A stretch of 32,000 nucleotides of DNA from Promethearchaeota archaeon (GTDB lineage Archaea; Asgardarchaeota; Lokiarchaeia; Sigyniarchaeales; SOKP01), in the NCBI GenBank assembly GCA_030606485.1, contig JAUWGH010000001.1, positions 810,001 through 842,000 on the forward strand, written 5' to 3'. This document shows, one piece after another, positions 10,831 through 15,043 of this stretch; position 1 is the stretch's first letter, and each line of letters begins with the position of its first letter. The notes under the pieces are model-generated. The model was given only the letters and a program-made list of their open reading frames with translations, did not search any database and was not told where the DNA came from. The translations under genes were made by a program, and so were the position numbers.

Positions 10831-10860
10831 GAAATTATTTATAACGCATTAAATAATTTC
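10831..10860. repeat. Local hairpin GAAATTATTTA-taacgcat-TAAATAATTTC, containing the left copy (10836-10859) of a long-range inverted repeat
   Basis: 11-bp arms with an 8-nt loop. 10836-10859 matches the reverse complement of 13496-13519 at 23/24 positions (18 bp perfect, 10842-10859 vs 13496-13513). Confidence 0.65.
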
Positions 10861-11422
10861 GCAAAACAGCATAAGGTTTTAATCTCTTGTGATGGTAATT
10901 TAAATTTCCTAATAAATTTTATTAACGCACGCTGAAATTTCTTAAAAGAGCTAAAAAAAGTGTTATGCGACACTTGCTCCCGAACCTTTTAAAAGATAAT
11001 GCTTCAATCCCTAATTTGACACGAGATAAGTTCCTTTGAATTTAACTCAAACCCTCAGCCCTTATTTATATTTCTGAGAAAAATATATCATAATCATTTA
11101 TACTTTGATAATCGTCTAAACTTAGTGATATCCACGACTATTCCATAAATTTCTAGATAAATTAAATTTTATCTTTGGATAATATGAAACTTGAATTGAT
11201 CTGTATTTTATTAATAATTTCATAATCAGATAATATAATTTGAGAAATTGATCAAATTAGAGGTAAAAAACATCTCATTTTTATCAAATAAATACAAAAT
11301 TCGGTGGATAATAGAGAAGAAAATTAAAAATAAACACAATGTTAATTTGACAAAAATATATAAATGAAAAAAAAGGATATATTTAAAGACCTAATGAAAA
11401 TTTTTTATGGGAGTAATAATCC

Positions 11423-13156
11423 ATGAAACGAAGTAAATTTAAATTAGCTTTATTGATCTCTTTGTCCATCTTTTTTGGTGGCTTCACAGCTATTTATCTC
11501 TATAATAACATCAATTTGTTAAAGGATCATGTTGTCGAAGATTTAGAGAGCTTTTCAGAAGAATTAAAAATTTCTGCTTGGAATTGGACCACGACCGAGG
11601 TGGTCTCCACGGAAAGTACTGATTATTCCCAGGGTCCAACAATAGCAGTGGACGGTTCCAGAAACGTGCACATTGCATGGACTGAAGGGACGAAAAATGG
11701 CGGTTCGGGAACGGATGTAGATATATTTTATAAGCGCTGGAACCCAACCACGGCGACCTGGACCACGACCGAAGTGGTCTCCACGGAAGGTACTGGTGAT
11801 TCTTGGTATCCAACAATAGCAGTGGACGGTTCCGGTAACGTGCACATTGCGTGGTTTGGTGATGCGAATTATGGCGGTTCGGGAAGTGATAATGACATAT
11901 TTTATAAGCGCTGGAACGTGGCCACGGCGACTTGGACCACGATCGAGGTGATCTCCACGGAAAGCACTGATTATTCTCGGGATCCAACAATAGCAGTGGA
12001 CGGTTCCGGAAACGTGCACATTGCGTGGAAAGATTGGACGAATTATAACGGTTCGGGAACGGATGGGGATATATTTTATAAGCGCTGGAATGCGACCACG
12101 GCAGCCTGGACCACGATCGAGGTGGTCTCCACGGAAAGCACCGTTAATTCTTGGTGTCCAACAATAGCAGCGGACGGTTCCAGAAACGTGCATATTGCAT
12201 GGACTGAAGGGACGAAAAATGGCGGTTCGGGAACGGATCAAGGTATATTTTATAAGCGCTGGAACGCAACCACGGCGACCTGGACCACAAGCGAGGAGGT
12301 CTCCACAGAAAGCACTAATTATTCTTGTGTTCAAACATTAGCAACGGATGGTTCCGGAAACGTGCACATTGCGTGGAATGATGTTCCTACGGGTCATGGC
12401 GGTTCGGAATTGGCTTGGGATATATTTTATAAGCGTTGGAACGCAACCACGGCGACCTGGACCACAAGCGAGGAGGTCTCCACTGGTCGTTCTTTTTATC
12501 CAACAATAGCAGTGGACGGTTCCGGAAACCTGCACATTGCGTGGTATGATCAGACGAATTATGGCGGTTCGGGAACTGATCTTGATATATTTTATAAGCG
12601 CTGGAATGCGACCACGGCGACCTGGACCACAAGCGAGGAGGTCTCCACGGAAAGCACTGATAATTCTTATGATCCAACAATAGCAGCGGACGGTTCCGGA
12701 AACGTGCACATTGCGTGGTATGATTATACGAATTATAGCGGTTCGGGAGGGGATTGGGATATATTTTATAAAAAAAATCCATTTATGATTATAAATAATG
12801 GAGATGCGAGTACTAATTCTGCCTTAGTGACTCTCACGCTCTCGGCTGATGGAGCAGAAGAAATGTGCTTTAAAAATGGAACTACTGATGCTTGGACTGA
12901 TTGGGAACCTTATACTACAGCAAAACAGTTATATCTAGAAGGCTCCATAAATAATACGGAATATTCAATCTGTGTTAAGTTTCAAAATGCAGCAGGAGAA
13001 ACTTCGCCAGTTTGTGATAGCATTCTGTATTTAGCTGAAGAAGGACCTCCCTTTGCAAATATCATTGCTATTATCGCAGCAATTGCAGGTGGAGGATTAG
13101 CTGTTTCTATAACAACAATATTATTAATTCGAAAACGTCGGAGAAAAGTACAATAA
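11423..13156 (+). CDS. Membrane-anchored surface protein: N-terminal signal/TM, seven ~58-aa repeats (predicted 7-blade beta-propeller, BNR/sialidase-like), Ig-like domain, C-terminal TM
   Basis: Repeats WTTxExVSTE...PTIAxDGSxNVHIAW...GSGxDxDIFYKRW; then IINNGDASTNSALVTLTLSA...WTDWEPY (Ig-like); hydrophobic IIAIIAAIAGGGLAVSITTILLI followed by RKRRRK. Confidence 0.9.
   Translation: MKRSKFKLALLISLSIFFGGFTAIYLYNNINLLKDHVVEDLESFSEELKISAWNWTTTEVVSTESTDYSQGPTIAVDGSRNVHIAWTEGTKNGGSGTDVDIFYKRWNPTTATWTTTEVVSTEGTGDSWYPTIAVDGSGNVHIAWFGDANYGGSGSDNDIFYKRWNVATATWTTIEVISTESTDYSRDPTIAVDGSGNVHIAWKDWTNYNGSGTDGDIFYKRWNATTAAWTTIEVVSTESTVNSWCPTIAADGSRNVHIAWTEGTKNGGSGTDQGIFYKRWNATTATWTTSEEVSTESTNYSCVQTLATDGSGNVHIAWNDVPTGHGGSELAWDIFYKRWNATTATWTTSEEVSTGRSFYPTIAVDGSGNLHIAWYDQTNYGGSGTDLDIFYKRWNATTATWTTSEEVSTESTDNSYDPTIAADGSGNVHIAWYDYTNYSGSGGDWDIFYKKNPFMIINNGDASTNSALVTLTLSADGAEEMCFKNGTTDAWTDWEPYTTAKQLYLEGSINNTEYSICVKFQNAAGETSPVCDSILYLAEEGPPFANIIAIIAAIAGGGLAVSITTILLIRKRRRKVQ
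11585..12775 (+). repeat. Seven intragenic tandem repeats of ~174 bp
   Basis: Units start at 11585, 11759, 11933, 12107, 12281, 12458 and 12623 (lengths 174, 174, 174, 174, 177, 165, then a 153-bp partial). Unit 1 has 90/174 G+C by my count. Confidence 0.95.
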
Positions 13157-13160
13157 TTAA

Positions 13161-13182
13161 ATTTTTCTCTTTTTTTTCTTTT
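13161..13182 (+). terminator. Oligo-T tract, probable archaeal-type terminator
   Basis: ATTTTTCTCTTTTTTTTCTTTT immediately after the stop of 11423..13156. Confidence 0.5.
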
Positions 13183-13495
13183 AAATGATTCTATTCCTAA
13201 TTCACAATAAAAATGGGGTAGATAAGAAGAATTCAAAAAAATTCTACCTCTTTTTTGAAGCCATCTAGTTTTTGTTATTTCATTATGTAAATTAACTCCA
13301 AAAATGTTTAATTTTGAATATAATCGATTTGTGGTCATATATATCTTCATTGTTTGAGAACCGATCGTTTTTCTTTTTAATATACTGAAATGAAAATTGA
13401 ATTGAAAGTAAAATTCATTTTTTAATTTTACAATGTACCTATCATAAATTATACCTCATATGAGAGGAAATCTATGGTTAAAACTAAATATATTA

Positions 13496-13519
13496 AAATT
13501 ATTTAATGCGTTAAAAATA
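13496..13519. repeat. Right copy of the long-range inverted repeat (AAATTATTTAATGCGTTAAAAATA)
   Basis: Reverse complement matches 10836-10859 at 23/24 positions. Confidence 0.65.
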
Positions 13520-13552: not shown

Positions 13553-15043
13553 ATGAAAAAAGATGTTATTATTGTTGGAGCGGGAATCGGTGGATTGAGT
13601 TGTGCTGCTTTACTAGCCCATGGAGGGCATAAAGTCGTCGTCTTAGAAAAAAATTCTTACATTGGCGGTGCTTGTAGTTCTTATAAAAAACAAGGATATA
13701 GTTTTGACCGAGCTGTTCATTTATTTACTGCAGGATTAAACGGCCCATACGGCGTAATTTTGAAAAGATTGGGGATAGATAATTTAAAGTTTATAAAAGA
13801 AATCAATACCAGAACAGCAATGAAAATATATAAGAGAGAAGGCTATTTTCCATTCGATTTGAATATTAATCAAATATTCAAATTAATAAAACCACAAGGT
13901 GTTAAAAAGAAAGGTAGCGCTGCTACGAAAGGAACTGGAGCTAAATTAGTAATGGGGGGGTTAAAAGGAATGGGATTTTCTTCTCAGACATTTAAAGGTT
14001 TGACGAGCGTGATGACAAATATCCTAACTATGAGTAAAAAAAGATTAAACAAATTATATGACGAGCAATTAACAGTTACGCAGTACCTAAATCAATTCAC
14101 CGAAGATACTTTCATTCACGGTATTTTTGCCTTCCTCTTAGCAGGGATGTTTTCAATCTCGCCAAGAAAAGCAAGTGCTGCAGAATTTATCCATTGCTTC
14201 AAAGCAGAAATGACTTCAAAAGAAGGTTATCAGTATCCAATTACTGGAGGTGCTCAAGCCATCCCGAACGCAATTGCGGAAGGGATCATAAAATATGGCG
14301 GAGAAATTCGCACGAACTCCCCCGTTGATAAAATTGTAATTAAGAACGACAAGGTTCAAGGTGTTATGGTAGGTGATGATTTAATTAAAGCACCAATAGT
14401 CGTAAGTAATCTGACCCTTAAAATATCGGTTCTCAATTTAATTGGACGAGATTATTTCGATAAAAAGTATTTAGAAAAAATAGAGAGCCTAAGACCGTCT
14501 TTATCTTCGATGACGTTTAAACTTGCATTAAAAGAACCTCTAATTAAGGATTGGGGTTTCATAAACTTATATCACCCTACGTTAAACGATTGGAAAGGAA
14601 AATATGGCCCTGGTGCCCCAAAATCGAACGGATTTTTTGGACCCGTCCTTTCTAATATAGACTCGAGCTTAGCTCCTCCTGGCTGTCAAACCGTAATCTT
14701 TGGAACCGTTGTTCCATCAAAAGTTGCTAATTGGAATAAATGGCAAGAGGTCTACTACGCCGATCTATTAGAATTCTACCCAGACTTAGAAAAAAAACTC
14801 AATTTCATGGATGTGTCGTTCCCAAAAGATATCGCGGAAGCTACTGGAAAGCCAGCAGGGCCAGTAGAAGGCTTAGCACTCACACCTGCTCAAACTGGTA
14901 AAAATAAACCATCTTCTGTACTACCTATCGAGGGGTTATATGTAGTTGGAGACACTGCAGGAACGGACGCTCACGGAATTGGGACGCAGTTAGCGGCTGA
15001 TTCGGGTATAAAATGCGCTGATTTAATTCTACATCGTTCTTAA
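13553..15043 (+). CDS. FAD-dependent oxidoreductase, phytoene dehydrogenase (CrtI/COG1233)-like
   Basis: IIVGAGIGGL, LEKNSYIGG, YPITGGAQAI, C-terminal GLYVVGD. Has a Gly/Lys-rich insert near aa 115-140. Confidence 0.85.
   Translation: MKKDVIIVGAGIGGLSCAALLAHGGHKVVVLEKNSYIGGACSSYKKQGYSFDRAVHLFTAGLNGPYGVILKRLGIDNLKFIKEINTRTAMKIYKREGYFPFDLNINQIFKLIKPQGVKKKGSAATKGTGAKLVMGGLKGMGFSSQTFKGLTSVMTNILTMSKKRLNKLYDEQLTVTQYLNQFTEDTFIHGIFAFLLAGMFSISPRKASAAEFIHCFKAEMTSKEGYQYPITGGAQAIPNAIAEGIIKYGGEIRTNSPVDKIVIKNDKVQGVMVGDDLIKAPIVVSNLTLKISVLNLIGRDYFDKKYLEKIESLRPSLSSMTFKLALKEPLIKDWGFINLYHPTLNDWKGKYGPGAPKSNGFFGPVLSNIDSSLAPPGCQTVIFGTVVPSKVANWNKWQEVYYADLLEFYPDLEKKLNFMDVSFPKDIAEATGKPAGPVEGLALTPAQTGKNKPSSVLPIEGLYVVGDTAGTDAHGIGTQLAADSGIKCADLILHRS

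Follow-up and report, generated by a model that had tools for sequence, protein, structure and literature searches.

The window analysed here is a stretch of 32,000 nucleotides (nt) from a Promethearchaeota archaeon (GenBank assembly GCA_030606485.1, contig JAUWGH010000001.1, positions 810,001 to 842,000 of the forward strand), and contains an open reading frame (ORF), hereafter gene A, that spans positions 11423-13156 of the plus strand and encodes a repetitive protein of 577 amino acids (aa). The host genome (G000) comprises 3.75 Mb distributed over 13 contigs, with a GC content of 29% and a completeness of 100% by markers. The gene A product comprises, in this order, (i) an N-terminal hydrophobic helix, (ii) seven units of 55-59 aa, (iii) an all-β domain of about 90 aa, and (iv) a C-terminal transmembrane helix followed by a basic tail. 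Tandem Repeats Finder describes the units as a single array at 11585-12771, with a period of 174, 6.9 copies, and 81% matches. The protein belongs to the SBBP family (PF06739), with a Pfam match of 39.1 bits against a cut-off of 20.5. The C-terminal domain of about 90 aa matches no family in Pfam or NCBIfam, and the protein contains no NTPase domain.

The AlphaFold2 (AF2) model of the gene A protein, built on 90 homologues and with a mean predicted local distance difference test (pLDDT) value of 85.3, displays a closed propeller of seven four-stranded blades together with the β domain and the terminal helices; the N-terminal first strand completes blade 7 in a so-called velcro closure. Comparison of the model with the PDB using Foldseek retrieves seven-bladed propellers, including CylK, the Photorhabdus PLL/PHL lectins, sialidases, and an archaeal S-layer propeller. 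Among 8000 scored candidates, 809 homologues are found at E≤0.001, originating from metagenomes and metagenome-assembled genomes (MAGs); those with a named source belong to Heimdall-, Hod-, Hel-, and Promethearchaeota, and PF06739 is present in most of them. The named homologues thereby identify the host as an Asgard archaeon. Taken together, the gene A product is a type-I membrane-anchored, extracellular seven-bladed β-propeller of the SBBP family, a family greatly expanded in Asgard archaea.

A second Pfam family, Ribosomal_L31, also matches blade 1 (11591-11740, aa 57-106) with 29.7 bits against a gathering score of 27 bits; the NCBIfam L31 models match the same blade weakly, and several homologues carry the JGI name 'ribosomal protein L31'. 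We regard this as a near-certain misassignment, now propagating from one annotation to the next.

The comparison of blades relies on gene A, its paralogue gene B, and genes C and D from a genome of the same genus (G001), which together provide 35 blades for the analysis of the variable columns. Gene B (C10:676222-679086) encodes a protein of 954 aa comprising seven blades and five C-terminal domains. In addition, two alleles, E and F, are considered. Allele E (P0003, locus L021) originates from a separate assembly and a separate sample, encodes a protein with 94% identity to that of gene A, and preserves the seven blades in the same order, including the odd lengths of 59 and 55 aa. The repeat number is seven in every copy seen. 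A further family member in G001 (C41, locus L016), 1375 aa long, contains two full seven-blade propellers with two domains of the C-terminal type between them, an arrangement that points to tandem duplication of whole propeller modules within one protein.

The codon alignment confirms the preliminary description of this DNA, prepared from the sequence alone, in that seven units lie within ORF 11423-13156 and the variation among them concentrates in a few columns; the reported ggc/aac/agc and acc/atc/agc alternations are found at columns 40 and 4, respectively. In gene A, the blades share a mean protein identity of 0.70, which separates into 0.82 for the scaffold and 0.12 for the variable columns, whereas in gene B the overall value is 0.76; both genes thus reach the internal identity of 0.6-0.7 used to delimit highly repetitive propellers. 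The scaffold DNA had been described as almost invariant, synonymous sites included, which overstates the likeness: DNA identity between the blades of gene A averages 82.5%, with a range of 75-91%, and the proportion of synonymous differences (pS) in the scaffold is 0.157. Likewise, instead of four fixed spots per unit, eight columns (13, 14, 16, 17, 33, 36, 44, and 46) exceed 2 bits of amino-acid entropy across the 35 blades. The same eight columns, hereafter hot columns, are the most variable across the 90 homologues, with an entropy of 3-4 bits. The residues at the hot columns are mostly Tyr, Asp, Thr, Gly, Trp, and Asn.

Nei-Gojobori counts between the blades within each gene reveal an excess of amino-acid change at the hot columns. 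The raw proportion of nonsynonymous differences (pN) at these columns is 0.58 in gene A and 0.525 in gene B, against a scaffold pS of 0.157 and 0.095, respectively. In terms of nonsynonymous and synonymous divergence (dN and dS), gene A shows a scaffold dS of 0.176, a scaffold dN of 0.100, and a hot-column dN of 1.12, a ratio of hot dN to scaffold dS of 6.4; the corresponding values are 0.101, 0.078, 0.905, and 8.9 for gene B, 0.519, 0.133, 1.142, and 2.2 for gene C, and 0.545, 0.101, 0.952, and 1.7 for gene D. Housekeeping orthologues of the two species display a dS of 0.19-0.21, and comparison with the blade dS indicates that the blades of gene A date from around the time of the species split or later. 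Synonymous constraint, considered as an alternative to young age as the cause of the scaffold likeness, is ruled out, since between gene A and allele E the scaffold pS (0.058) is similar to that of the leader (0.038). Between the same two alleles, amino-acid changes affect 7 of 56 hot codons and only 11 of the 341 remaining codons (odds ratio 4.3, p=0.007), and four of the seven altered hot codons carry multi-base changes. Such whole-codon swaps are explained by short conversion tracts, visible only at the hot codons because the scaffolds are alike.

Recombination between blades is indicated by several observations. A test of the pairwise homoplasy index (PHI) type on 21 blades gives 0.415, compared with 0.506 for permuted sites (p=0.0005), and 521 of 1378 site pairs are incompatible. 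The blades of genes A and B lack positional orthology, differing by 0.095 at the same position and by 0.099 at other positions, with a synonymous difference of 0.039 in the leaders (aa 1-54). Individual exchanges can also be recognised: (i) blades 1 and 4 of gene A have an identical second loop and different first loops; (ii) at column 26, these two blades both carry AGA in gene A and both carry GGA in allele E, a parallel change; (iii) in allele E, the first-loop codons of blade 2 are those of blade 1; and (iv) the start of blade 7 of gene A carries the variant of blades 5 and 6 over a patch of 9 nt.

In the AF2 model, strand 1 of each blade corresponds to columns 15-22, strand 2 to columns 28-34, strand 3 to columns 46/47-53, and strand 4 to columns 1-6 of the next unit. 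Columns 13-17 therefore form the end of the loop that connects strand 4 to strand 1, whereas columns 33-46 comprise the loop between strands 2 and 3. The antiparallel β-meander topology would place both loops, and with them the hot codons, on one face of the propeller, a prediction that agrees with the location of hot spots on the 'top face' in WD40 propellers. By the same topology, the opposite face would present an invariant DGSGN turn and a NATTAT loop, the latter containing an N-x-T sequon in four units.

These observations are best explained, with a probability of about 0.65, by young, recombining SBBP blades with fast-changing loop codons, operating with no retroelement mutator. According to this explanation, the blades would be evolutionarily young and would swap sequence with one another and with the blades of paralogues, through gene conversion or unequal recombination, an exchange that would keep the structural scaffold nearly uniform in DNA. 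About eight codons per blade would change at or above the neutral rate, comprising (i) columns 13, 14, 16, and 17, in the loop leading into the innermost strand, and (ii) columns 33, 36, 44, and 46, in the loop between strands 2 and 3, with short conversion tracts reshuffling the hot codons as well. The outcome would be a propeller face lined with blade-specific residues rich in Tyr, Asp, Trp, Gly, and Asn, most likely the ligand-binding surface of an adhesin, a receptor, or a lectin-like protein. The rate excess at the hot codons is observed directly, and selection is its probable cause: selection on a binding face, one of the two possibilities originally advanced for this locus, is moderately supported by the ratios of 6.4 and 8.9 in genes A and B, by the family-wide variability of the same columns, and by the one-face topology.

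Several points weigh against this explanation. Between gene A and allele E, pN/pS at the hot codons is just 1.4, a value that neutrality could also give, and the ratios of 6-9 between blades are rough, as the hot columns were picked post hoc and the divergence is saturated. The tree of the blade scaffolds (129 columns) is star-like, with the blades of G000 and G001 intermixed and no clustering by species, so that the classical proof of concerted evolution is lacking. The placement of the hot codons on one face derives from the strand order in the model rather than from inspected coordinates. Finally, the explanation does not account for the GC content at third codon positions (GC3) of the blades, which is close to 0.5, against 0.17-0.2 in genes nearby.

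The alternative that survives best assumes that the loops are neutral: a single blade would have been amplified recently and the loops would have drifted while the scaffold was purified, with neither diversifying selection nor a special binding role. The allele-level ratio of 1.4 and the star-like blade tree agree with this possibility, as does the variation of the same columns throughout the family, which is expected wherever structural constraint is absent, and new propellers are known to be amplified continually from single blades (PMC9218822). On the other hand, neutral sites cannot outpace synonymous ones, as the hot columns of genes A and B do; the hot residues are non-random, with the preference for Tyr, Asp, Thr, Gly, Trp, and Asn described above; and conversion that homogenises the scaffold would homogenise neutral loop codons too. 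Neutral drift of the loops is accordingly a possible but unlikely explanation.

An assembly artefact, in which a chimeric or collapsed repeat of the MAG mixes strains or paralogues, is very improbable. Contigs from public short-read runs do break within the repeat, and one of them joins blade 1 to blade 6; nevertheless, allele E, recovered from another sample, reproduces the seven blades with their order and odd lengths, the frame is open throughout, and the protein is modelled as a closed seven-bladed propeller. The contig joining blades 1 and 6 was considered as a variant and is read instead as a repeat collapsed in assembly. The survey of public runs lists 20 metagenomes from cold seeps, marine sediment, and the subsurface, in which the Logan contigs within the repeat are 120-350 nt long and many fit two places; it lists no RNA data set, which speaks neither for nor against expression. 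Variants at the hot codons occur in these runs, such as four alleles at 12551-12553, and are not separable from mis-laid paralogous blades.

The preliminary description drew attention to hot-spot codons locked to NNT (N, any base), with bases 1 and 2 variable, and proposed, as one of its two possibilities, mutagenesis like that of a diversity-generating retroelement (DGR), acting in trans on each blade. The lock holds at columns 13, 14, and 17 of gene A, where all 21 codons end in T, but fails at other hot codons and is broken in the paralogue. Across the 35 blades, T ends just 71 of 139 codons at hot columns 16, 33, 36, and 46, where TGG, GGG, CGG, and GAG are frequent, and gene B contains AAA, GAC, and GAA at the 'locked' columns themselves. 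An excess of T is nevertheless real at columns 13, 14, and 17, with 98 of 105 codons ending in T where amino-acid composition and host codon usage predict 70.8; the probability that all 21 codons of gene A end in T is about 8e-5 for this gene alone. As the blades are not independent, these values exaggerate the significance. At these columns, all 13 Gly codons are GGT, all three Arg codons are CGT, and 31 of 32 four-fold degenerate codons end in T.

We infer that the third-base T is a by-product of three elements, each of them measured: turn positions would prefer residues encoded by NNY (Y, a pyrimidine), the AT-rich host would prefer T to C, and synonymous change would be low. The residues Glu, Lys, Gln, Trp, and Met make up 11-12% at columns 13, 14, and 17, compared with 21-36% at the other hot columns (90 family members), and in GC-rich homologues the third base at the former columns is mostly C. 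The T-ending four-fold codons can be attributed to low synonymous divergence, since the one-step neighbours (GGT, CGT, GTT) of GAT, TAT, and AAT keep the T; in addition, Asp, Asn, Gly, and Ser form a closed set, RRT (R, a purine), under transitions. NNY-type hot codons in near-identical repeats can therefore mimic the signature of a DGR in the absence of any retroelement, a point that calls for caution.

The components of a DGR are absent from this genome. A six-frame search of the whole genome with PF00078 yields one reverse transcriptase (RT), on contig C2, which carries RVT_N, RVT_1, and GIIM domains, and no RT of the DGR clade; in a whole-genome DNA search and in BLASTN of each blade (word size 7), the blade DNA matches genes A and B alone, other matches being 16-39 nt long with E≥0.01, and no template copy is found. 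Moreover, 49 of 56 hot codons are the same in gene A and allele E, from different samples and at a synonymous pS of 0.06, which indicates that no active mutator operates, since it would have randomised them. A DGR, or a similar trans-acting, template-directed adenine mutator rewriting the NNT codons of each blade, is therefore hardly credible, despite the T-ending codons with variable first and second bases and the DGRs that a DGRScan screen has reported from Asgard MAGs (PMC7495880), given that (i) the sole RT resembles those of group II introns and no template exists, (ii) the third base of the other hot codons is G, A, or T, (iii) the locked codons most often begin with guanine, not adenine, (iv) the hot codons are largely kept in allele E, (v) the variant types in four metagenomes are dominated by transitions and are not adenine-specific, and (vi) variable sites occur in each of seven tandem units, and in four genes with 35 blades altogether, whereas DGR targets contain a single 3' variable region.

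The sole RT is itself an 892-aa fusion (G000 C2:276273-278951, minus strand, locus L001), whose partners comprise a treble-clef/zinc-ribbon domain (DUF4379), SAP, and repeated CapR-homology domains. The architecture is unusual and the protein is possibly a candidate defence-type RT.

Comparison with known systems highlights both common features and differences. Among prokaryotic WD40 proteins, highly repetitive propellers whose hot-spot residues are diverse have been described (Hu et al. 2017, PMC5587647), and such propellers keep arising by blade amplification (Pereira and Lupas 2022, PMC9218822). Gene A resembles them in its blade identity of 0.70, in agreement with the cut-offs of 0.7 and 0.6 used in these surveys, and in combining a conserved scaffold with diverse positions of predicted interaction in repeats that are read as young. 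Nevertheless, the surveys deal mainly with propellers of the WD40, VCBS, Kelch, and similar families, the more recent one (PMC9218822) mentions neither SBBP nor Asgard archaea, and the propeller of gene A is extracellular and anchored to the membrane at its C-terminal side. The Photorhabdus PLL/PHL lectins (PDB codes, 5c9o and 5mxe) share the fold (Foldseek E ~1e-12 to 1e-13, with a template-modelling score of 0.7 by target) and the repeated blades, each of which could contribute a site, whereas sequence identity is just 10-13%. The likeness to DGRs, on the other hand, comprises NNY-type variable codons in a binding protein that is predicted here to be surface-exposed, and an enrichment in Tyr, Asp, Asn, and Gly; it does not extend to a DGR RT, a template repeat, or an adenine-specific pattern, and the variation here is distributed among many repeat units and persists from strain to strain.

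Parallels in mode of evolution are provided by the WD repeats of the fungal NOD-like receptors (NLRs) het-d, het-e, and nwd (PMC1805685; Dyrka et al. 2014, PMC4986451). The nwd/het-e genes undergo concerted evolution and contain four positively selected codons per repeat, located on the interaction face (Paoletti et al. 2007, PMC1805685). As in these genes, the repeats of gene A are nearly identical within and between paralogues, units are exchanged, and a few codons per repeat evolve fast, those of the fungal genes lying on the interaction face. The exchange of repeats within and between loci is found here in the PHI-like result (p=0.0005), the parallel changes, the loop transfer, and the lack of positional orthology, and a few codons show dN above dS (6.4, 8.9, 2.2, and 1.7 in genes A to D), values that are subject to the post-hoc choice of columns, to saturation, and to the allele-level ratio of 1.4. 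Unlike the fungal NLRs, the gene A product has no NACHT/STAND ATPase and is not cytoplasmic, repeat-induced point mutation (RIP) is absent, the repeat number is fixed at seven instead of variable, and the repeats do not cluster by species.

Such repeats represent an established route to a variable binding face; what is new here is its occurrence in an archaeal, extracellular member of the SBBP family. The combination of young, recombining repeats and fast hot-spot codons, as described in fungal NLRs and bacterial WD40 proteins, would thus operate on an archaeal surface propeller. Asgard archaea are closely attached to their partners, and their means of recognising surfaces, partners, or viruses are poorly understood; a large family of membrane-anchored SBBP propellers, in which the only strongly variable residues probably lie on one face, provides candidate recognition molecules for binding studies. 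A more speculative extension, which we regard as improbable, is that the Asgard SBBP genes form a recombination-driven system of surface variation, in which the blades of paralogues and of relatives in the community would act as donors for short conversion tracts that remodel the binding face of whichever copies are expressed, and whole genes would be moved or swapped as cassettes bounded by inverted repeats and duplicating a TA target. Such a system would be the archaeal counterpart of antigenic variation by segmental gene conversion or of repeat shuffling in fungal NLRs, and could be used against viruses or in partner recognition within syntrophic consortia.

Gene A is located in a 2.68-kb unit (10836-13519; Table 1) bounded by inverted repeats of 24 nt and flanked by a TA duplication. 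The left arm coincides with the left end of a block common to another assembly and with the left edge of an empty site in the sister genome G001, where the flanking genes are joined by a single TA. The same junction, of 10835 with 13518, is seen in a metagenome contig (run X2) that extends just 27 nt to one side of it. Allele E possesses both arms and the flanking TA in a different genomic context, between unrelated glycosylation genes. Arms in inverted orientation, a duplicated TA, and a relative in which the site is empty are the features of a terminal inverted repeat (TIR) element, and the unit looks like a non-autonomous TIR element carrying a passenger. It shares the TIRs and the TA duplication with IS630/Tc1-mariner-like elements or a derived miniature inverted-repeat transposable element (MITE). 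No ORF other than gene A lies between the arms, and a search of the genome for PF13358 (DDE_3) gave no match, other transposase families not having been searched.

Table 1. Features of gene A and of the inverted-repeat unit, in positions of the window
Feature	Coordinates	Strand	Basis and remarks
Inverted-repeat left arm, 24 nt	10836..10859	+	First two bases TA, the duplicated target; arms 96% complementary (23/24)
Conserved, AT-rich upstream region (putative promoter/5' leader)	10860..11422	+	Aligns with the upstream regions of paralogue B and allele E; parts recur 5' of family genes in genomes G002 and G003
Signal/anchor helix and linker, aa 1-54	11423..11584	+	Translation; AF2 helix, residues 3-46
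Blade unit 1, aa 55-112	11585..11758	+	First strand closes blade 7; second loop as in unit 4
Blade unit 2	11759..11932	+	Codon alignment, AF2 model
Blade unit 3	11933..12106	+	Codon alignment, AF2 model
Blade unit 4	12107..12280	+	Codon alignment, AF2 model
Blade unit 5, 59 aa	12281..12457	+	One additional loop codon; most divergent unit
Blade unit 6, 55 aa	12458..12622	+	Codon alignment; lacks three first-loop codons
Blade unit 7 and linker	12623..12790	+	Linker lacks 18 nt (6 aa) present in allele E and the paralogues
All-β C-terminal domain, ~90 aa	12791..13045	+	Copies: one in gene A, five in paralogue B, two in allele F
C-terminal transmembrane helix, basic tail RKRRRK, and stop	13046..13156	+	Translation; AF2 helix, residues 543-576
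Inverted-repeat right arm	13496..13519	-	Last two bases TA, the duplicated target; same arm at the same place in L029

A second version of the locus is found in another assembly (L029, GCA_030609505.1, 246-2276), which shares the right repeat arm and a downstream flank that is 96.4% identical. The gene at this position encodes 676 aa, with two C-terminal domains and an anchor like that of paralogue B, and shows only about 83% DNA identity to gene A; a gene of this divergence amid so similar a flank indicates wholesale replacement of the allele by recombination at this locus. At the boundary between blade 7 and the C-terminal domain of gene A (12773-12790), the linker piece that is missing relative to the related genes is FISSPL-like; the frame is open there and the confidence of the model is lower.

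Further copies of the arm are located elsewhere. In the host genome, one copy lies upstream of paralogue B (C10:679640-679663), where the adjoining 1 kb or so downstream contains no right arm, and a solo copy is found at C10:98512-98535. The arm also occurs in seven other contigs from Asgard or unnamed archaea, six of them with an exact copy and one with a single mismatch, whereas most of the 32 arm matches in the contig search are dismissed as chance matches in AT-rich bacteria. At L035:647-757, a degenerate arm is opposed by a perfect one at a distance of about 63 nt, resembling a miniature element.

The blades differ from their surroundings in base composition, with a GC3 of about 0.5 (11585-12790, and likewise in paralogue B and the G001 genes) compared with 0.15-0.31 in the neighbouring genes. 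The blades use the codons ACG, GCG, TCG, and CGC, and the leader and the C-terminal domain of gene A are nearer to the host composition. Horizontal origin of the blade DNA and GC-biased gene conversion are candidate causes of the high blade GC3. Beside the unit, an amine-oxidase-like gene (13553-15043) displays a GC3 of 0.31, somewhat above that of its neighbours.

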